Positions 5,108-22,834 of a DNA stretch of 24,000 nt are shown piece after piece. The position numbers were made by a program, and so were the translations under genes. Every line of letters starts with the position of its first letter. Position 1 is the stretch's first letter. Below the pieces are notes generated by a model. The model was given only the letters and a program-made list of their open reading frames with translations, did no database searches and had not been told where the DNA came from. Origin of the DNA: Metabacillus indicus LMG 22858 (GTDB lineage: Bacteria > Bacillota > Bacilli > Bacillales > Bacillaceae); NCBI RefSeq assembly GCF_000708755.2, contig NZ_JGVU02000001.1, forward strand, positions 556,694 to 580,693, read 5' to 3'.

Positions 5108-6628
5108 TCAGGAAATTTCTTTGTCTTGATTGATTTGAGGCTTTTTGTCTTCATGTTCTGCTATTAAATCTGCGGTCAGCTGTCCGGATAGGGTGACCAT
5201 TGGCACTCCGCCGCCCGGATGGGTGGATCCTCCGACAAAATACAGATTCTCAAGCAGCGTGCTTTTGCTCGGGATTTTAAATCCTCCATTTTTCTTCCGG
5301 TCTGTAGCAACTCCGTAAATCGAGCCGCCGTTCGCTCCGTATAAACTTTGAAGGTCGTTTGGTGTAAACGTATATTCAAATTCAATATGCTCTCTCAACC
5401 CGGTCATCCCCATGCGCTCAAGCTTATCAAGGATTTGTGCCCGGTACGTTTCTTTTCTGAATTCCCAGTTCTCACCCTCCTTAAGAGGAGGAACATGAGT
5501 AAGAACAAACAAGTTTTCTTTTCCGGAAGGTGCCTGAGTCGGATCGGATTTTGCCGAAATGCCGACATAAACCGTCGGGTCATCTGCAAGCTTGCCTTCA
5601 TTAAAAATCTGATGAAATTCTTTTTCAGGATCTTCCGAGAAAAAGAAATTATGATGGGCAAGATTTTCGTATGTCCGGTCTACCCCAAGCAGCATGACCA
5701 GACCTGATACGGTAGGCTCATATTTTTGGAGATCTGACGCCTTCTGGCTGCTGCCGGCTTTGTCTTTAAGAAGCGTATTGTAGGCAGGAATGGCTTCCAG
5801 ATTGGATACCACAATGTCTGCATGAAGGATTCTGCCATCTGCAAGCTCGACGCCGGCTGCTCTTGAGCCCTCAGTGACAATACGTTCTGCCTTTGTGTTC
5901 AGCAGAATGTCAGCACCTAGTTCATGAAGCAGTTTGTTCATGGCCAGTGCAATGTTGTACATGCCGCCTTCAACGTAGTAGACGCCAAGCCCGAGCTGCA
6001 CATGAGTCAGCTGCGAAAGAACGGCAGGGGCATGGTAAGGTGAAGAGCCTATGTACATAATCAGAAAATTGAACAGCTGTCTGATTTTCTTGTTTTTAAA
6101 ATGTTTGCGTGTGACGCCGTCCATTGATTTCAGCGGTTCCATCATCAGCAGTTCCTTCACGCTGTGAAGAGAGCGGAGGTCATTCAGGCCGGATAGGCTT
6201 TTGCTGTAAAAGCTCTTCATGCTGTATTCATACATTTTACTGCAATACTGCAGGTAATCAAAGAATTCGTTTGCATCTTCTTCGGAAACTTTTTTCAGTT
6301 CCTCAAGCATAACAGGCAAATCGCTTGTTAAATCAATCGTTGTCCCGTCTTCATAGAATGTTCTCCAGCCCGGCTCAATCCTTTTAATGGTCAGGTAATC
6401 TGATAGATTCCGCCCGGCGCTTTTAAATAATTTTTCAAGCACCCAGGGCATTGTCAAAATAGACGGTCCTGTATCAAAGGTATAGCCGAGTCCGCCGCGC
6501 ATATTAAGCTTGCCGCCGACACGTTCTCCTTTCTCCACTACTGTGACATGATAGCCGTCTGAACGGAGCCTGATAGCCGCTGACAGCCCGCCAAGCCCGC
6601 CGCCGATAATGACTGCTTTCTTATTCAT
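5108..6628 (-). CDS. crtP: CrtN/CrtP-family FAD-dependent C30 carotenoid desaturase/oxygenase (4,4'-diaponeurosporene oxygenase CrtP-like)
   Basis: 506 aa with SD AAGGAGGG upstream. Dinucleotide fold VIIGGGLGGLSAAIRL. Blocks GPSILTMP, DYLTIKR, DGTTIDL, LAHHNFFF, DDPTVY, ILDKLERMGMTGLR and NLYFVGGSTHPGGGVPMVTLSG match my memory of S. aureus CrtP. I cannot separate CrtP from the CrtNb/CrtNc sub-functions by eye. Confidence 0.8.
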   Translation of the reverse strand: MNKKAVIIGGGLGGLSAAIRLRSDGYHVTVVEKGERVGGKLNMRGGLGYTFDTGPSILTMPWVLEKLFKSAGRNLSDYLTIKRIEPGWRTFYEDGTTIDLTSDLPVMLEELKKVSEEDANEFFDYLQYCSKMYEYSMKSFYSKSLSGLNDLRSLHSVKELLMMEPLKSMDGVTRKHFKNKKIRQLFNFLIMYIGSSPYHAPAVLSQLTHVQLGLGVYYVEGGMYNIALAMNKLLHELGADILLNTKAERIVTEGSRAAGVELADGRILHADIVVSNLEAIPAYNTLLKDKAGSSQKASDLQKYEPTVSGLVMLLGVDRTYENLAHHNFFFSEDPEKEFHQIFNEGKLADDPTVYVGISAKSDPTQAPSGKENLFVLTHVPPLKEGENWEFRKETYRAQILDKLERMGMTGLREHIEFEYTFTPNDLQSLYGANGGSIYGVATDRKKNGGFKIPSKSTLLENLYFVGGSTHPGGGVPMVTLSGQLTADLIAEHEDKKPQINQDKEIS

Positions 6629-16430: not shown

Positions 16431-17417
16431 TTGAATCAAGGAATAGAACTATGCGCGTTAACAAAAATGTATAAGCAAAAGCCTGTTTTTGACAGGATGG
16501 ACTTGACCATACACAAAGGGGAAATTGTTTCACTGGTCGGTCCTTCGGGGACGGGAAAAACGACTTTACTGCGGTGCATTGCAGGACTTGAGACGCTGGA
16601 TGAGGGTGAAATTAAGATTAACGGAGAGAATGTAACCTGGAGTAAACCCCAGAAACGTCCGGTCGTCATGATGTTTCAGCAGCCGCTGCTTTTTTCGCAT
16701 ATGACGGTATTTGAAAATGTTGAGTACGGGTTAAAGGCAGCTAAAAAGAAAAACCGGCGGGAACAGGTCGCTGCGATGCTTGAAAAAGTGGATATGTCAG
16801 CTTATTCAGATGCTTATCCAAACGAATTATCAGGCGGCCAGCAGCAAAGGATTTCTCTAGCGAGGGCACTTATCGTGAAACCTGAGCTGATCCTTTTGGA
16901 TGAGCCGTTTTCAAGTCTTGATCCAGAGCTCAGGAAAAAAATGAGGATGTGGGTCAGAAGGCTGCTTAAGGAAGAGGGCATGTCTGCATTATTTGTTACA
17001 CATGATATGGAAGAAGCCATGTACATGGGGGACAGGGCAGCCGTGCTTGCTGACGGAAGGGTTCATCAGGCAGATGTCCCGGAAACCGTCTATCTGCATC
17101 CTAAAACGGTAGCTGCCGCTTCGATCTTCAGTGAAGGGATGATGACCGGCATCGGCTCCTTTGTGCACATCAGCAACCTGAGACTTGCTGTCGATAAGAA
17201 GGAGCAGTATCCATACAGCTATGCTGCTGAAATTGAAGACATTTTCATGAAGCACGGCGTCACTTTCTATACGCTTAAACTGAAAGATGCAAATGATAGA
17301 ATAACCATCCATTCAGATATATTGGCAGGCATCCAGGATTCAGTCTATGTTGAAGTCGTTCATCCGGAACTCATTCAGACGTTTGATCATTCCGAAAAAG
17401 AGGAAGATGCAGGATGA
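16431..17417 (+). CDS. ABC transporter ATP-binding protein with C-terminal regulatory/TOBE-like extension
   Basis: ORF 16422..17417. TTG 16431 is preferred (SD AAAGGTGA 16417-16425); the alternative is GTG 16422, overlapping the permease TGA. Walker A GPSGTGKTT, Q-loop MFQQP, signature LSGGQQQR, Walker B LILLDEPFSSLD, H-loop VTHD. Confidence 0.9.
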   Translation: MNQGIELCALTKMYKQKPVFDRMDLTIHKGEIVSLVGPSGTGKTTLLRCIAGLETLDEGEIKINGENVTWSKPQKRPVVMMFQQPLLFSHMTVFENVEYGLKAAKKKNRREQVAAMLEKVDMSAYSDAYPNELSGGQQQRISLARALIVKPELILLDEPFSSLDPELRKKMRMWVRRLLKEEGMSALFVTHDMEEAMYMGDRAAVLADGRVHQADVPETVYLHPKTVAAASIFSEGMMTGIGSFVHISNLRLAVDKKEQYPYSYAAEIEDIFMKHGVTFYTLKLKDANDRITIHSDILAGIQDSVYVEVVHPELIQTFDHSEKEEDAG

Positions 17418-18067
17418 AAAAGAACAGTGTATGGAAATTGCTTGTCATTGCTGCGGGAGCGGGAGTGCTGCTGTGGATTAACAGCCGTTATCTGAATCTG
17501 CAGCCTAAGACGATCAAGGACTGGATGTTATCCTTCGGGGCAGCTGCACCGCTCCTTTATATCGTTTTATATTCCGTCAGGCCGTTAATTCTTTTTCCGG
17601 CGTCTGTCATGTCCCTTGCAGGCGGCCTTGCTTTCGGCCCCTATCTGGGGACACTGTATACTCTGGCCGGCGCAACAATTGGAGCCGTTGTGGCTTATTT
17701 GGCAGCCGGCACCTTCAAGCTTGACATGTTCAGGAAATCAGATAATCAAAGAATGCAGACACTGAAAAAGCAGCTTGAGCAGAACGGATTTTTCTATGTG
17801 CTTATCCTCAGGCTGATTCCGATTGTCCATTTTGATGCCATAAGCTATGCAGCCGGCATTTCAAAAGTGAGACTTCTTCCATTCGCGGCTGCAACTTTTA
17901 TAGGGGTAATCCCGGGTACATTTGCCTTCACCTTTTTAGGATCAAGCTTTGCCGAAGGGAACGTGCTGCTGCTTGCTGCTGCAGGAGCTGTATTTCTTCT
18001 TTTGATGCTCTTGCCCCTTCTTTTCAGGGAAAAAGTAAAACAGCTGCTTACCAATGAATCGAAATGA
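17414..18067 (+). CDS. TVP38/TMEM64 (DedA-superfamily, SNARE-associated PF09335) membrane protein
   Basis: 217 aa. Its ATG overlaps the ATPase stop (ATGA 17414-17417). Five to six TMs, with LRLIPIVHFDAISYAAGIS typical of the family as I remember it (E. coli YdjX/YdjZ class). Confidence 0.75.
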   Translation: MKKNSVWKLLVIAAGAGVLLWINSRYLNLQPKTIKDWMLSFGAAAPLLYIVLYSVRPLILFPASVMSLAGGLAFGPYLGTLYTLAGATIGAVVAYLAAGTFKLDMFRKSDNQRMQTLKKQLEQNGFFYVLILRLIPIVHFDAISYAAGISKVRLLPFAAATFIGVIPGTFAFTFLGSSFAEGNVLLLAAAGAVFLLLMLLPLLFREKVKQLLTNESK

Positions 18068-18076
18068 GGAAAATGT

Positions 18077-18658
18077 ATGCTTGATACACATGCAAGAAAA
18101 TATGTTCAGCCCATCATCCATCATTCTGCAAAGCGTCTCCTGCGAGCGGGACTCACGGCGAATCAGGTGACGGTTCTGGCTTTTATCATCGGTTCGTCTT
18201 CCGGCTTTTTCGTTTATATCGGACAGCCTTTCTGGGCCTTGGCCGTACTGTGGCTATCCGGATATTTGGATGCCGTTGACGGAACGATGGCGAGGCTGAC
18301 GAAACCTTCAGGATTTGGAACCGTTCTTGATATTACATTTGACAGGGTGGTTGAAATAAGCGTCATCGTAGGCCTTGCGTTTGCGTTTCCTGATGCGCGT
18401 CTTGCCCTTCTGCTGTTGTCGGTTTCTATTATCCTTTCAATGACAATCTTCCTTACAGTAGGGGCCGTCAGCGAAAAACAGGGAGTGAAAACCTTTTATT
18501 ATCAGGCTGGACTGGCTGAGAGGACAGAAGGATTTATTTTGTTTTCTCTTATGATTCTTTTAACTGATCACCTTATTCTAATTACCTATTTATTCTTTGC
18601 AATTGAACTGTTTACAGCCATGCAGAGGCTGAGAGAAGCGAAAACCATTTTGAAGTAG
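18077..18658 (+). CDS. CDP-alcohol phosphatidyltransferase family protein (YnjF-like subfamily, not PgsA-like)
   Basis: 193 aa, 9 nt after the previous stop, with SD GAGGAAAA. Motif DAVDGTMARLTKPSGFGTVLDITFD = D-x2-D-G-x2-A-R-x7-G-x3-D-x3-D. The N-terminus MLDTHARKYVQPIIHH and KTFYYQAGLAERTEG resemble my memory of E. coli YnjF. Confidence 0.8.
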   Translation: MLDTHARKYVQPIIHHSAKRLLRAGLTANQVTVLAFIIGSSSGFFVYIGQPFWALAVLWLSGYLDAVDGTMARLTKPSGFGTVLDITFDRVVEISVIVGLAFAFPDARLALLLLSVSIILSMTIFLTVGAVSEKQGVKTFYYQAGLAERTEGFILFSLMILLTDHLILITYLFFAIELFTAMQRLREAKTILK

Positions 18659-18669
18659 GGGGATCAGAC

Positions 18670-20091
18670 ATGGAATATGACGTAATTGTAATTGGCGGAG
18701 GATCAGGGGGGCTGACGGCTGCTGCAGGCGCTGCAAGCTTTGGGGCGAAGACGGCTTTAATAGAAAAAGAGAAAGCTTTAGGGGGAGACTGCCTTCACGC
18801 TGGCTGTGTTCCTTCTAAAGCTTTTATCGCTGCAGCAAACAAAGTGTACAGCGCTAAAAAAGCAGCAGCCGCGTTCGGACTTACCTCAGGCGGCAAAGCC
18901 GATATGAAAAAAGTGATGGAGTCCGTTCAAAGGGCGATAGCTGTTATTCAGGAGCATGATGATGATGAGCGTTTTGAGAGTCTTGGAATCGATGTGATTC
19001 ACGGCGAGGCCGTTTTTGTCTCAAGTCATGAGGTCAGTGTGGGAGATAACATCCTCAAAGGGAAAAAAATCATTCTTGCAACAGGCTCAAGACCGGCGAT
19101 TCCGGATATTGACGGCATCCGCGATTCCGGCTATTTGACAAACCGGAATGTATTTAATCTGGAGGTTCTGCCTGAAAGTCTTGCCGTTATAGGCGGAGGA
19201 CCGATCGGAGTGGAGCTTGCACAGGCTTTCTCCAGGCTTGGGACCCAAGTAACACTTATTGAAAGGTCCTCATTGCCGCTCTCAAAAGAAGATGATGAGA
19301 TCAGGGAGACCGCAGCCCGCCTGCTAAGTAAGGAATTCACCATTTTAACAGAAGCAGCCATTGAATCAGTGTCTTCTTTTGAAGACAGGAAAGAGCTTGT
19401 GATACGGCAGAATGATGTTCTTAAAACGCTTGAAGTGAGCCATATTCTCGTAGCAGCCGGAAGAAAACCGAACAGTGACGGGCTGAAGCTTGAGACTATA
19501 GGGGTCGAATGCGACGAGAAAGGAGCCGTGAAAGTCAACCGTTCCATGCAGACGAGCGTTCCGCATATTTTCGCCATCGGAGATGTTAACGGAAACCAGC
19601 TTTTTACTCATGCTGCCGGCCTGGAAGGAAAAGGCGTCGTTCAAAAAGCAGTCCTTGGATTGCCGCATACCGTCAAGTATGACAGCATGCCTTGGGTTAC
19701 ATATACGCACCCGGAGATCTTTCATCTTGGCATGACAGAGGATGAAGCGCGGAAAAATTACAGGGATATTGGCGTATACAAGGCTCTCCTCAATGAAGTG
19801 GACAGATTTATAGCCGAAGATGAGACAGAAGGATTTGTGAAAATCATAACGGATAAACACGGCGCTATCTTAGGTGCCCACGCAATAGGAGAGGGAGCGG
19901 GAGACTGGATGCAGCCTGTCGTATATGCCAGTCAGCTCGGGAAAAAAATCGGCGATCTTTCCCAGATGGTTTATCCTTATCCCAACAGGGCAGCAGCTGT
20001 TCAAAAAACGGCGGACCTGTACTGGAGAGAAAAACTTTTTTCAGGCATTGTGCCTAAACTGACAGAAAAATGGATCAAAGTAAAACGCTGA
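18670..20091 (+). CDS. Class-I pyridine nucleotide-disulfide oxidoreductase (dihydrolipoamide dehydrogenase / mercuric reductase-like)
   Basis: 473 aa with SD AGGGGGA. FAD fold VIVIGGGSGGLTAA, redox-active pair GGDCLHAGCVPSK, NAD fold LAVIGGGPIGVELA, FAIGDVNG, and a dimerisation-domain His in GAHAIGEGAGDWM. Confidence 0.85.
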   Translation: MEYDVIVIGGGSGGLTAAAGAASFGAKTALIEKEKALGGDCLHAGCVPSKAFIAAANKVYSAKKAAAAFGLTSGGKADMKKVMESVQRAIAVIQEHDDDERFESLGIDVIHGEAVFVSSHEVSVGDNILKGKKIILATGSRPAIPDIDGIRDSGYLTNRNVFNLEVLPESLAVIGGGPIGVELAQAFSRLGTQVTLIERSSLPLSKEDDEIRETAARLLSKEFTILTEAAIESVSSFEDRKELVIRQNDVLKTLEVSHILVAAGRKPNSDGLKLETIGVECDEKGAVKVNRSMQTSVPHIFAIGDVNGNQLFTHAAGLEGKGVVQKAVLGLPHTVKYDSMPWVTYTHPEIFHLGMTEDEARKNYRDIGVYKALLNEVDRFIAEDETEGFVKIITDKHGAILGAHAIGEGAGDWMQPVVYASQLGKKIGDLSQMVYPYPNRAAAVQKTADLYWREKLFSGIVPKLTEKWIKVKR

Positions 20092-20110
20092 AGAAAAATT
20101 CTTCAGCGTT
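20084..20110. terminator. Bidirectional terminator whose arms contain both convergent stop codons
   Basis: AACGCTGAAGAA (20084-20095) / TTCTTCAGCGTT (20099-20110): a perfect 12-bp inverted repeat. TGA of the + gene is at 20089-20091; TGA of the - gene is the complement of 20103-20105. T-rich flanks on both strands. Confidence 0.75.
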
Positions 20111-21179
20111 TCATCTTTTGCATATATCTTCTGTCAATCCAGTGCTTTATTTTCCAGGGGAAACTGCCGTATAAAGAGTATGTCCCGTATAGCAGAACCC
20201 CCTTTTTATTTCCTGCAGAAAGAATACTCAAATAGCGTTTTTTAGGTTTGAACGGCTTTAGCTTCTGCCCGAGCTGAAATCTCTTGATATTTTTAAACAA
20301 GACTGGAGCCTGCCGGACGGCATATACGCCGTTCTTTGCAAGACCGGGGTATTCCTCAAACGATACACAGTCTCCTGCACCAAAAATATAAGGAAACTGA
20401 ACAGATTGAAGAGTCTTTGAGACAAGCATAAAACCGTTCTCATCGCATGCAATCCCGCTTTCCTTCAGCATGGGATGCGGAGCCGGTCCTGTAAGGATAA
20501 GCGCTGAGTCGAAAGGAATCCTGCTGGTTTCTGTGTGTATTGATTGTAATTTGGCGGATACAGCTGACTGATGGAGAAAGAGCGGGATGTTGTTTTCTTC
20601 AAGCAGGCGTGTCAATCCTTTAGAGATATTTTCAGCTGCAGAAGGTGCTATGCCGCTGTTTGAAAGAATCGTAACATTTGAAAGGAACCCGTTTTTCCTT
20701 CTGTATGCTGATACGGATAATGCAAGCTCCAACCCTGCGATTCCTGCTCCTATAATAACGGGTGAGTCTGCTTCTCTGAATTTTCTCATCTTTTCAGGAA
20801 AGGTATAGGCCGGCTTTATGGAACGGACTGCCGGATGACCTGGAAAAGGGGAATGACTTTCTGACCCGAGGTTCAGGCTGAGCAGGTCAAAAGCCAATTT
20901 TCCCCCTGTTTGCAGAAGAACCTCCTTTTTCAATGGATCAATTCTGACTGCTTCTGCTTTTAAAAACTCCGCACCTGCTCTTCTGCAGAGCGCCTCAATA
21001 CTGAAAGTCAGATCTGCTTCCTCATAAAGCCCCTCTGAAAATCCGGAAAACATGCCGGAGTAAAACTGATATTCAGAAGGAGAAACACATGTGATGCGGC
21101 AATTCCATTTTTCTGATTTAGCTCTCTGAAGGAAGGAAGCGTGAACATGCCCTCCTCCAAGCAGCACCAAATGCTTCAT
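20103..21179 (-). CDS. FAD-dependent pyridine nucleotide-disulfide oxidoreductase family protein (NDH-2/SQR fold; resembles the 'N-terminal to SelD' TIGR03169 family)
   Basis: ORF 20103..21218, trimmed to ATG 21179-21177 (MKHLVLLGGGHVHASF, SD AAGGGGTG). Also YSGMFSGFSEGLY, a second Rossmann fold VIIGAGIAGLELA, and FGAGDC. There is no N-terminal CxxxxC. Confidence 0.7.
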   Translation of the reverse strand: MKHLVLLGGGHVHASFLQRAKSEKWNCRITCVSPSEYQFYSGMFSGFSEGLYEEADLTFSIEALCRRAGAEFLKAEAVRIDPLKKEVLLQTGGKLAFDLLSLNLGSESHSPFPGHPAVRSIKPAYTFPEKMRKFREADSPVIIGAGIAGLELALSVSAYRRKNGFLSNVTILSNSGIAPSAAENISKGLTRLLEENNIPLFLHQSAVSAKLQSIHTETSRIPFDSALILTGPAPHPMLKESGIACDENGFMLVSKTLQSVQFPYIFGAGDCVSFEEYPGLAKNGVYAVRQAPVLFKNIKRFQLGQKLKPFKPKKRYLSILSAGNKKGVLLYGTYSLYGSFPWKIKHWIDRRYMQKMKR

Positions 21180-21202
21180 TTGAACACCCCTTGACCGCAA
21201 TG

Positions 21203-21234
21203 AAAAGCACACGCGCATACAGCGGCGTGTGCAA
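21203..21234 (-). terminator. Leader (attenuator) terminator immediately upstream of the oxidoreductase RBS
   Basis: Minus strand: GCACACGC-CGCTGTATGC-GCGTGTGC followed by TTTTCATT. It ends about 25 nt before ATG 21179, with the SD lying between the terminator and the start codon. Confidence 0.7.
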
Positions 21235-21400
21235 TAAGTAGTTGTAATAGTAGACTGTACTTTTGTGAAAGTCTGATTGTTTCAGCCATGCCGGTACCAC
21301 CTACACGACGTAAGCCCTGCCTCTCAAACGTCCTTGCGGTTCCAAGCCCGCGCCAGCTGGAGTAAGTGAATTCATGATTGGCTGAAATCTTGCCTCTAGC
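21235..21400 (-). promoter_or_regulatory. Candidate riboswitch-like structured 5' leader of unknown class
   Basis: About 165 nt between a putative promoter and the leader terminator. Long-range 9-bp helix TTTCAGCCA (21387-21379) / TGGCTGAAA (21288-21280) encloses ~91 nt. An internal helix GACGT/ACGTC is present. CGTCGTGT can pair 7/8 with the terminator 5' arm ACACGCCG (anti-terminator). I could not match it to any riboswitch class I know. Confidence 0.45.
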
Positions 21401-21401
21401 C

Positions 21402-21429
21402 ATTATTTACCCGATATTCAGGTTGTGAA
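21402..21429 (-). promoter_or_regulatory. Putative sigma-A promoter for the structured leader
   Basis: Minus strand: TTCACA (21429-21424), 16-nt spacer, AATAAT (21407-21402). Confidence 0.35.
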
Positions 21430-21446
21430 ACACACCATAGAGAGTT

Positions 21447-21902
21447 TTATTTTATCTTGAGAAGCAGGTATCTGACGAAAAATCCAGCGGAGAGTCCGGG
21501 GATCAAAGAGAGCATAGGCAGCCATATCGGCCCTGGCAAAACTCCAAACAGCCGCACTTTGGGGGACAGCATTAACCCGACTGTTACAAAATAAGCACAG
21601 GATGCAAATGGCAGAAAGGACAGCTCAGGCTGATGTCCATCTGCATGTTTGTAAGCATCATACATAGCATACATGTAGATGCATGGATAAAACATGAGCC
21701 ATCCAAAGTCCACCGTCTGAAAAGCAGTATCTATTTCCCCTAAAAAGCTCAGCATAATTCCTCTGTTAAAATGGCTGTACGTATTTATAATCACTTCCAG
21801 AGCAATAAAAAGGATCCCCTTCACAAGCTGTCTGTTCAGCAGCTGCCCAAACCCCGGAAATGCTATGCTCCATAACAAAACTTCAAGCTTAGTTGTTTTC
21901 AC
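21447..21902 (-). CDS. Small integral membrane protein, function unknown
   Basis: 151-aa ORF with a GTG start. Four to five hydrophobic segments. N-terminal FPGFGQLLNRQLVKG motif. No terminator before the downstream leader. Confidence 0.55.
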   Translation of the reverse strand: MKTTKLEVLLWSIAFPGFGQLLNRQLVKGILFIALEVIINTYSHFNRGIMLSFLGEIDTAFQTVDFGWLMFYPCIYMYAMYDAYKHADGHQPELSFLPFASCAYFVTVGLMLSPKVRLFGVLPGPIWLPMLSLIPGLSAGFFVRYLLLKIK

Positions 21903-22089
21903 ATTCTAACCTGCCTATCCCTGTCTGTCTTATGTATAGAAGAATATGATCTAATGTTATTTTCTGTAAAAAAACAGAGAACATACAGTAAATTTGAACA
22001 TGAAAAGTAAAAGATGAAAAAAATGATGCCTGACAATGCTACTCCATTCATGATATCCATGTATAACATTCATGAAAGGAGGTGATGAA

Positions 22090-22308
22090 ATGGCAGAAAC
22101 AGTCATTCTTGATTCACAGCTCCGCCTTGTGTTTGATATGGGTCTAAATGAAAAGGGCGAGCCGGCAGTTAAGTACAAAAATTACAACAACATTAAGACA
22201 ACAGCAACGCCTGAACAGCTGCTGCAGGCAGCAGCAGCCATTGCGGAACTGCAGACGGAAACGCTTTTGCATGTTGAACGCAATGATTCTCATCAAGTCA
22301 TGGCGTAA
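22090..22308 (+). CDS. DUF1659-family small protein
   Basis: ORF 22072..22308; ATG 22090 lies 7 nt after the GGAGG core (22078-22082). 72 aa, MAETVILDSQLRLVFDMGLNEKGEP..., which fits my memory of PF07872 and its usual pairing with DUF2922. Confidence 0.65.
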   Translation: MAETVILDSQLRLVFDMGLNEKGEPAVKYKNYNNIKTTATPEQLLQAAAAIAELQTETLLHVERNDSHQVMA

Positions 22309-22344
22309 TGAAAAAACAGCTGGAGGGAAGGAGGTGGGAGGACT

Positions 22345-22560
22345 ATGGCAAAAACACTTGAACTTCATTTTTTAAATGAAGAGGGAAAAATCGTGAAACT
22401 GATGATCGATTCTCCGAAAGAACCTGTTGTGCCCGGTGACGTGTCACTTGCAATGGATGAAATTCTTGCATCCAACGCATTTTTTTCAGCGGGGGGAAAC
22501 TTCATCAGCAAAAAAGGAGGCCGCATCGTTGAGCGCAATGTAGCAGACCTGACGATATAA
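22345..22560 (+). CDS. DUF2922-family small protein
   Basis: 71 aa, with a very strong SD GGAGGGAAGGAGGTGGGAGG at 22322-22341. MAKTLELHFLNEEGKIVKL...; its position downstream of DUF1659 is typical. Confidence 0.65.
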   Translation: MAKTLELHFLNEEGKIVKLMIDSPKEPVVPGDVSLAMDEILASNAFFSAGGNFISKKGGRIVERNVADLTI

Positions 22561-22566
22561 AGATAG

Positions 22567-22607
22567 AGGGCCGGATCCCATGCACGGAGGATCCGGCCCT
22601 TTCCTGT
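22567..22607 (+). terminator. Rho-independent terminator
   Basis: AGGGCCGGATCC (22567-22578) / GGATCCGGCCCT (22589-22600): 12-bp stem, 10-nt loop, then TTCCTGTATT. Confidence 0.7.
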
Positions 22608-22693
22608 ATTCAAATCATGCCGGCTGTTAACAGTTGAAAAAACGTGTTTTCAGTCTTTGTGCAATAAATGATGGAAAAGGAGGAAAACCTAAT

Positions 22694-22834
22694 ATGGAAG
22701 AATGGATTCAAGTAGTGAGTGAAGTCGGATTTCCAATCGTGGTGACGCTCTATTTGCTGCATAGAATTGAAAGTAAACTGGACACTCTGAACAGTACAAT
22801 CCAGATGCTTCCAAATCAGCTGAACAGCAAGTAA
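22694..22834 (+). CDS. YvrJ-family small membrane protein
   Basis: ORF 22634..22834, trimmed to ATG 22694 after AAAGGAGG (22676-22683). 46 aa, MEEWIQVVSEVGFPIVVTLYLLHRIESKLDTL..., which matches the YvrJ (PF12841) pattern as I recall it. Confidence 0.7.
   Translation: MEEWIQVVSEVGFPIVVTLYLLHRIESKLDTLNSTIQMLPNQLNSK

Follow-up and report, generated by a model that had tools for sequence, protein, structure and literature searches.

What is encoded in the 267-bp intergenic gap in front of a flavin adenine dinucleotide (FAD) oxidoreductase gene in Metabacillus indicus LMG 22858, and does it control that gene? We addressed this question in a stretch of 24,000 nucleotides (nt) from this organism (the window, to which all coordinates below refer; the element lies on its minus strand unless stated otherwise). 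A first-pass annotation, made from the sequence alone, had described the gap as an orphan riboswitch-like leader with an intrinsic terminator. Judged by sequence comparison, the element is a diverged member of the BsrC family (Rfam RF01410) and a minus-strand RNA, opposite in orientation to the Rfam model. The minus strand of the window encodes a real structured RNA that has been conserved in evolution.

21180-21446: intergenic gap of 267 bp between two minus-strand genes
21295..21381, plus strand: match to Rfam BsrC (RF01410), 55 bits (gathering score 38), over the DNA of the element's core but on the opposite strand

The BsrC match was the sole Rfam match above gathering score in the window, with an E-value of 3e-07 for the whole window and 7.5e-09 in a local search, and the element is thus no orphan; the same Rfam model scored 69-108 bits in 18 related loci. 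When the minus strand was compared with Rfam riboswitch, T-box (RF00230) and ribozyme families, no match was found even at E<=10, in agreement with the initial failure to place it in any known riboswitch class. Weak matches to MIAT, Mu-gpT-DE and Twister-P5 were judged to be noise. BsrC is a small RNA (sRNA) of Bacillus subtilis, located in the ydaG-ydaH intergenic region according to Saito et al. 2009 as cited in PMC2784878 and PMC3574147, and bsrC was the sRNA most strongly co-precipitated with Hfq in this organism. The window copy shares the conserved core sequence with RF01410. However, Rfam models a single hairpin on the opposite strand, whereas comparative data give a three-way junction on the other strand, and the window context (membrane protein open reading frame (ORF), element, oxidoreductase) differs from the ydaG-ydaH (amj) location. 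We file the element as homologous to RF01410 sequences, with a revised strand and fold. A literature search with the core sequence in both orientations returned no description of this RNA, the string occurring only in unrelated papers.

Occurrence of the family was assessed with a core pattern containing 21 specified bases, which was searched in reference genomes (one genome per species). The pattern had more than 119 exact matches in the reference genomes, whereas 100 shuffled versions of the window gave none, even with two mismatches allowed. Among the matches listed, all were from Bacillales or from metagenome-assembled genomes labelled Bacillota, except for two contigs labelled Pseudomonas sp. 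ISL-84; they included Bacillaceae (in the broad sense), Paenibacillaceae, Brevibacillus and Sporolactobacillaceae, and some genomes had two copies. Each of the 8-kb loci extracted (cited here by L numbers) contained exactly one copy by our covariance model R1. A 322-nt 'BsrC' transcript has been reported in Paenibacillus.

We aligned 104 distinct copies from Bacillales (alignment A1), which contained 31 invariant and 15 nearly invariant columns. On the strand equivalent to the minus strand of the window, A1 folds into a three-way junction, whose helices (P) and junction strands (J) are as follows:

A1 columns 21-25 with 86-90: P1
J1/2: consensus UUCACACUGGC
A1 columns 37-41 with 49-53: P2, with an invariant GGAG in its loop
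J2/3: consensus AAGG
A1 columns 58-64 with 75-81: P3, with the invariant 10-nt loop AGAGGYAGGG
J3/1: consensus YGUU

Base pairs were possible in 90.7% of the helix cells of A1, compared with 30-47% when the partners were slid, and both sides had changed in 191 cells; the observed values were reached by none of 500 shuffles. In addition, the top three column pairs by mutual information were modelled base pairs. Covariation in homologous loci, which the first-pass annotation had proposed to look for, is therefore strong. The junction strands and loops hardly varied and were rich in purines, with GGAG/GGAA in the loop of P2, AGAGGYAGGG in that of P3 and AAGGA at J2/3. On the supported strand, the words AAGGAG, AAGGA and GAGAGG, which resemble Shine-Dalgarno (SD) sequences, were invariant, as was the word AGAGAGG, which spans the stem and loop of P3 and is followed by UAGGG or CAGGG. 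For a pseudoknot between J1/2 (AUUC) and the P2 loop (GGAG/GGAA), mutual information was uninformative, the columns being too invariant. The description of the region as GC-rich and helix-forming held in part: GC content rises modestly, to 0.52-0.54 from 0.41-0.49 in the flanks, but the whole region folds no better than shuffled sequence (z of -0.34 and -0.74 for the two strands). Because the thermodynamic fold is indistinguishable from that of shuffles, the reality of the element rests on conservation.

The strand was decided by several kinds of evidence. With one loop position left out, the helices contained 218 G·U cells on the minus-equivalent strand versus 12 A·C cells, and P3 alone contained 73 versus 1. 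Since A·C cells would be the wobbles of the Rfam strand, this excess argues for the minus-equivalent strand. The consensus energy calculated with RNAalifold was -11.0 kcal/mol for the supported strand and -4.2 kcal/mol for the Rfam strand. Sigma-A-type promoters with at least 10 of 12 matches were predicted upstream of the element on the supported strand at 48 of 117 loci, versus 3 of 118 on the other strand (8.25 expected from shuffles), with a sharp distance peak at 60-120 nt from the element. Terminators were found within 450 nt downstream at 66 of 120 loci on the supported strand and at 18 of 120 on the other. Published transcripts point the same way. Irnov et al. 2010 (PMC2965217) placed ncr1566, located between cspC and ydeB, on the ydeB strand, which in the corresponding locus (L045) is the covariation-supported strand. 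Rasmussen et al. observed that the bsrC segment was joined to the transcript of the upstream gene. In a B. pumilus-group genome, the supported strand runs in the same direction as both genes of the ydaG-amj locus, and the Rfam match is antisense to them. The initial choice of the minus strand is backed by covariation, by the asymmetry between G·U and A·C, and by promoters and terminators, and on this comparison the Rfam strand and its single-hairpin structure appear unsupported for any family member.

In the window, the element has the following parts, all read on the minus strand:

21402..21429: sigma-A-type promoter-like site, TTCACA at 21429-21424, 16-nt spacer, AATAAT at 21407-21402; 10 of 12 matches
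21390..21398: 5' box UAGAGGCAA, just past the predicted start, repeating the P3-loop word AGAGGCA
21280..21387: full folded element with closing helix P0
21379-21387 with 21280-21288: P0, a 9-bp perfect inverted repeat TTTCAGCCA/TGGCTGAAA, arms 100% complementary and 90 nt apart; by position, UUUCAGCCA (21387-21379) with UGGCUGAAA (21288-21280)
21298..21368: three-way-junction core, from alignment, pair counts, mutual information and covariance model
21368-21363 with 21303-21298: P1
21362-21352: J1/2, CUCCAGCUGGC
21351-21348 with 21339-21336: P2, GCGG with CCGC, loop 21347-21340
21335-21332: J2/3, AAGG
21331-21325 with 21314-21308: P3, loop AGAGGCAGGG at 21324-21315
21307-21304: J3/1
21233..21279: 47-nt spacer between element and terminator, poorly conserved
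21199..21232: intrinsic terminator, GCACACGC-CGCUGUAUGC-GCGUGUGC (21232-21207), then UUUUCAUU

The structural parts named in the first-pass annotation were all present at the coordinates given: the promoter TTCACA-16-AATAAT, the 9-bp closing helix, the TCACTTA/TAGGTGG pairing (P1) and the GACGT/ACGTC hairpin (P3), the latter two both in the minimum-free-energy fold, as well as the duplicated AGAGGCA and GGGCTT words, the GGTGGTACCG word, and the terminator with TTTT followed by SD and ATG. The promoter-like site predicts a transcription start near 21395 and, together with the terminator, an RNA of ~195 nt. No pairing partner was found for the 5' box. In the window copy, J1/2 is a variant and P3 has two U·U mismatches. 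This copy scored 68.2 bits with R1, versus 75-106 bits for complete copies elsewhere; it is the most diverged and lowest-scoring complete copy seen. The terminator hairpin GCACACGC/GCGTGTGC with its TTTT (-17.4 kcal/mol, z of -2.7) has a loop of 10 nt and was missed by the terminator scan program. It ends 27 nt from the ATG, and its U-tract 23 nt, which is the tightest spacing in the family.

The GGTGGTACCG word deserves comment, as it resembles the T-box consensus sequence GGUGGUACCGCG. In the window it consists of the 3' strand of P1 and an internal loop, and in another subclass of the family (subclass A, below) the equivalent GUGGAA pairs with UUCUGC in the closing helix P0. With no match to RF00230, the statement that the element lacks T-box architecture stands.

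We next consider how the element is connected to the oxidoreductase. The genes flanking the gap are:

20103..21192, minus strand: oxidoreductase gene including its SD; 358 residues, Pyr_redox_2; ATG at 21179
21192-21185, minus strand: SD of the oxidoreductase, AAGGGGTG
21447..21902, minus strand: upstream co-directional ORF for a membrane protein of 151 residues, no family match

The nearest NCBIfam family of the oxidoreductase was TIGR03169 ('Nterm_to_SelD'), with a score under the cutoff. Besides the window, three Metabacillus-lineage genomes had the same order of membrane ORF (of the same 151-residue type), element and oxidoreductase:

L123, Metabacillus sp. SLBN-84: oxidoreductase 89% identical to that of the window; R1 score 69.5 bits
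L124, M. idriensis: oxidoreductase 52% identical; R1 score 78.8 bits
L128, a metagenomic relative: oxidoreductase 48% identical; R1 score 73.7 bits

The core was nearly invariant in all four genomes, and the outer helix changed in sequence while keeping its pairing (GAUUC/GAAUC is the P0 counterpart in M. idriensis, and UUCUGC/GUGGAA that in subclass A). The -10 region CGGGTAAATAA was kept in all three relatives, and the 5' box was invariant in M. indicus, Metabacillus sp. SLBN-84 and M. idriensis and was also present in L128. A terminator was located directly 5' of the SD in all four. Its stem occurred in three distinct versions, that of L123 being close to the window copy; all start with GCACA and end with UGUGC-UUUU, with interiors that differ in a compensatory manner, and the M. 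idriensis terminator was calculated at -17.4 kcal/mol. The link of element and terminator to the gene is thus a feature of one Metabacillus lineage. Where orthologues of the oxidoreductase lie in another synteny (L125, L126, L129, L130 and L131), both the element and the terminator are missing.

In the genomic surroundings, a conserved four-gene cluster (window 17414-21179) is shared with L125, L129 and L130. It encodes a VTT/DedA-family membrane protein, a CDP-alcohol phosphatidyltransferase (nearest to phosphatidylinositol-phosphate synthases), a 473-residue class-I pyridine-nucleotide-disulfide oxidoreductase and the 'Nterm_to_SelD'-like oxidoreductase. The last gene of the cluster points away from the other three in Sutcliffiella and B. 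tianshenii, across a gap of ~40 nt. In the Metabacillus lineage the two are convergent, and the element and terminator have been acquired upstream of this last gene. On the other side, a trio of small-protein genes (DUF1659, DUF2922 and YvrJ; window 22072-22834, plus strand) lies divergently to the membrane ORF, with a cation-diffusion-facilitator gene after it, an order common to L123, L124 and L128.

Does the family as a whole serve a particular kind of gene? We surveyed genomic contexts by clustering, as naive ORF calling was too noisy. The nearest downstream gene was co-directional for 54 of 116 copies and convergent for 62. Real co-directional downstream genes included csp, folD, Old Yellow Enzyme (OYE), Fur-like, OsmC and amj genes and the window-type oxidoreductase. 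There is no functionally coherent downstream regulon across the family, and the varied co-directional genes therefore carry no signature of a gene-specific metabolite riboswitch. The gap between element and terminator, 47 nt in the window, was 50-250 nt across the family. Two other structured RNAs were detected among the loci, a cobalamin riboswitch (L018 5620-5802, minus strand, 108.6 bits) and a Bacillaceae-1 RNA (L009 5049-5114, minus strand, 39 bits).

Two subclasses consist of RNAs that stand on their own. Subclass A (L032, L007, L010, L018 and ~20 other loci), often located downstream of a ydaG-like gene, represents the bona fide bsrC locus. Its members are closed RNAs of ~300 nt with their own TATAAT box and terminator and no gene after them. 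The 5' word GUAACUUG and its complement CAAGUUAC, which lies ~200 nt downstream and directly 5' of the strong terminator, are both conserved, and the outer helix UUCUGC/GUGGAA surrounds the junction. Further conserved blocks, CUGGCAUUC and ACCGCGGCAA, were observed in this subclass (e.g., L032 ~5360-5800, plus strand) and matched no Rfam family. The ydaG-amj context was recovered in L017 and L104.

The second subclass, downstream of ydeB, comprised 23 loci (e.g., L008, L041, L045, L049, L057 and L083) with ~400-450 nt of conserved non-coding sequence, a terminator at its end and the junction mid-way, with ~200 nt on either side. This stretch is conserved across the B. cereus group, the B. subtilis group, Mesobacillus and Peribacillus. 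The ydeB gene encodes a CarD-like protein, and no obvious sigma-A promoter was seen directly upstream of the ydeB-type RNA, which may be a long ydeB 3' untranslated region (UTR) or a large non-coding RNA (ncRNA). B. subtilis 168 has two copies, bsrC and ncr1566; a second bsrC copy of B. subtilis in the cspC-ydeB region is also recorded in BSGatlas (PMC8208703). ncr1566 belongs to the same family and to the ydeB-downstream subclass (here L045, L008, L049 and L083), and its published strand is the supported strand. Members of its subclass are embedded in ~400-450 nt of non-coding sequence without a co-directional gene that could be controlled, whereas the copy in the window is short and directly adjoins a gene. 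The single match in IMG/VR (L127 6954-7056, minus strand, 103 bits; contig IMGVR_UViG_2684623142_000002) was also of the ydeB-downstream type, and with this one match a phage origin of the element was rejected. The contig (52.7 kb, classified as viral) may be host DNA beside a prophage, or it may have been binned wrongly.

Other copies precede genes. csp was directly downstream in 13 of 120 loci, in ~10 of them within a long leader with a strong promoter, in which a long hairpin and its U-tract lie between the element and the SD; in L062 and L109 csp had its own promoter downstream of the element. In seven leaders (L006, L025, L035, L059, L074, L076 and L121) the hairpin AAUUCACAUAU...AUAUGUGAAUU with its U-tract lay ~90-190 nt past the core, before the SD. 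Its 5' arm repeats the J1/2 word AUUCACA, so that either copy of this word would be a conceivable partner for the 3' arm. The designation 'csp leader element' was rejected, as only 13 of 120 loci have this arrangement and csp is convergent with the element in the B. subtilis group. A role as folD riboswitch was likewise rejected: ZMP/ZTP riboswitches (57-58 bits) lie directly 5' of folD in L005 (4103-4186, plus strand) and L054 (2250-2333, minus strand), ~200 nt past the BsrC-type element and on the same strand, between the element and folD, with a csp gene after folD. The OYE genes had their own promoter after the terminator. In L017, an ECF-type (extracytoplasmic function) promoter-like sequence, AGAAAC-N17-AGTCTA, was observed between the BsrC terminator and amj (5375-5410, plus strand), and amj probably has its own promoter of this type past the terminator, which weakens the idea of an amj leader. 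This site would fit the reported control of amj by sigma-M.

The explanation that we favour, with moderate confidence, is that the window element is a structured ncRNA unit of the BsrC family that docks a cellular factor, and that its terminator gates read-through into the oxidoreductase gene. The RNA of ~195 nt would consist, after its promoter, of the 5' box UAGAGGCAA, P0, the three-way junction, the 47-nt spacer and the terminator. It would be made from its own promoter and mostly end at the terminator, as stand-alone members of the family appear to do; that 62 of 116 copies face a convergent gene speaks for such autonomy. The oxidoreductase would be transcribed by terminator read-through, because no promoter was detected between the terminator and the start codon in the window. 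The conserved junction would then serve as a docking module for a cellular factor and not as a gene-specific metabolite sensor. Candidate factors are Hfq or, through the SD-like words, the 30S subunit. One sequence to which Hfq of B. subtilis binds is (AG)3A (Someya et al. 2012, PMC3287200). The AGAGAGG word of the element resembles this sequence and thereby the AG-repeat RNAs that Hfq binds, although the core is far larger than an AG repeat.

Several points weigh against this explanation. The M. indicus promoter and terminator are predictions. In the window, no terminator was detected between the 151-residue membrane ORF and the element, and the terminator in front of the oxidoreductase could equally end the transcript of that ORF, which would place the element in its 3' UTR. 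M. idriensis has a promoter-like ATTACA-16-TATAAT between element and terminator, and in L128 the word TATATAAT, with a promoter-like TATAAT, can be read at the equivalent place; no comparable site was present in the spacer of the window. In these two genomes the gene may thus be transcribed independently of the element, and coupling between element and gene would therefore be looser. Structured RNAs may have been enriched non-specifically by co-immunoprecipitation (co-IP), as the Hfq study itself suggests. In addition, ~45 invariant or nearly invariant positions in junctions and loops would also be expected of a ligand-binding aptamer, and the csp, amj and oxidoreductase loci all have the order element, terminator and SD, which hints at a role in cis.

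Such a role could be that of a cis-acting leader module that works at a distance and without alternative pairing, either modulating termination or stabilizing the mRNA; we regard this as possible, though rather doubtful. It might take the form of CSP (cold-shock protein)- or Hfq-dependent or temperature-dependent control, of processive antitermination like that by put or EAR elements, or of a STAB-SD-like 5' stabilizer. Terminator-like hairpins at variable distances in the csp, amj and oxidoreductase leaders would fit it, as would the 13 copies in csp leaders with strong promoters, the finding that CSPs change terminator read-through in B. subtilis and the invariance of AAGGAG, AAGGA and GAGAGG, and the lack of an anti-terminator would be expected. 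However, what follows many copies is only a terminator and then a gene in convergent orientation, and antitermination would be detrimental there. STAB-SD sequences are SD-like 5' stabilizers of mRNAs. The element has the SD-like AAGGAG and AAGGA, but it usually lies ~60-120 nt from the predicted start and not at the 5' end of the transcript.

A transcription-attenuation riboswitch, in which the junction binds a small molecule and controls the terminator before the FAD/NAD(P) oxidoreductase, is in our view unlikely. Variable, covarying helices around near-invariant junctions are an architecture typical of aptamers, and the order of promoter, element, terminator and SD/ATG is kept in four lineages, with compensatory changes in the terminator; to this extent the attenuation layout described initially was borne out. 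The absence of a detectable promoter from the terminator to the ATG of the window would also fit, as would the similar layouts before csp and amj, and riboswitch aptamers often underlie Hfq co-IP peaks. The closest structural parallel is the purine riboswitch, a three-way junction of transcriptional type with the same order of P1, J1/2, P2, J2/3, P3 and J3/1 and with conserved junctions; like this type, the window has a promoter, an aptamer-like domain, a terminator and an SD. In contrast to it, the element has no conserved anti-terminator, no coherent regulon and no Rfam riboswitch match. The anti-terminator of the first-pass annotation was reduced to a 5-bp duplex, CGUGU/ACACG, that was not above shuffles and was not conserved in related leaders. 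When the best duplex between the terminator 5' arm and either the 3' side of the element or the spacer was determined in the four lineages, the fractions of shuffles that did as well or better were 0.07, 0.08, 0.72 and 0.38, with no conserved register. The distance from closing helix to terminator, 47 nt here and 50-250 nt in the family, also speaks against a switch, as do the half of the copies that lack a co-directional downstream gene, the separate ZTP riboswitch of folD, the post-terminator promoters of OYE and probably of amj, and the absence of the element from orthologous oxidoreductases elsewhere. Nothing specific supports a ligand-sensing riboswitch, and we give it correspondingly little weight.

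Still less survives of the reading implied by Rfam, a plus-strand, trans-acting sRNA antisense to the leader with a CU-rich anti-SD loop, CCCUGCCUCUC, which we consider very improbable. The Rfam model does match the plus strand, and in RoxS/RsaE a C/U-rich loop pairs with SD sequences, so that the loop here could in principle do likewise. The comparative data described above have already largely refuted this reading: the helices would have C·A/A·C mismatches where the other strand has wobbles (218 versus 12), the consensus fold is weaker (-4.2 versus -11.0 kcal/mol), promoters (3 of 118 loci) and terminators (18 of 120) are scarce, and published transcripts lie on the other strand. Finally, the 75-codon ORF of the region (21403-21176, minus strand), to which the first-pass annotation had drawn attention as a possible conserved small protein, is present in the window and in the near-identical L123, but the element is not coding, because in M. 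idriensis this ORF spans no more than 30 codons although the RNA core has hardly changed; with no Pfam match, no SD before its ATG, and family variation by compensatory base-pair changes and 1-nt loop indels, protein-coding conservation can be practically dismissed.

For the claim of an FAD-oxidoreductase riboswitch, the outcome is mostly deflationary, and a new riboswitch is not established. The BsrC family itself was already known; the corrected strand and fold of the family and its modular contexts are new. Both the strand and the fold assigned in RF01410 appear to be wrong, so that annotation pipelines carry an "sRNA" on the incorrect strand through Bacillales genomes. With the correction, the model becomes a three-way junction in which ~45 positions are invariant or nearly so. 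This RNA ranks among the more strongly conserved structured RNAs of Bacillales without an assigned function. It occurs in long csp leaders, beside general-stress and redox genes, and as the core of ncRNAs of ~300-450 nt. A more speculative possibility, which we put forward tentatively, is that the BsrC core is the sensor domain of an undescribed regulatory RNA class of Bacillales, responding to a ligand, a protein or temperature. If true, the sensor core would gate downstream terminators in csp, amj and redox-gene leaders and would also be found inside larger stand-alone ncRNAs, and Rfam BsrC would need to be re-stranded and re-folded. As B. subtilis 168 contains two copies, bsrC and ncr1566, such a sensor function would be directly testable in a model organism.

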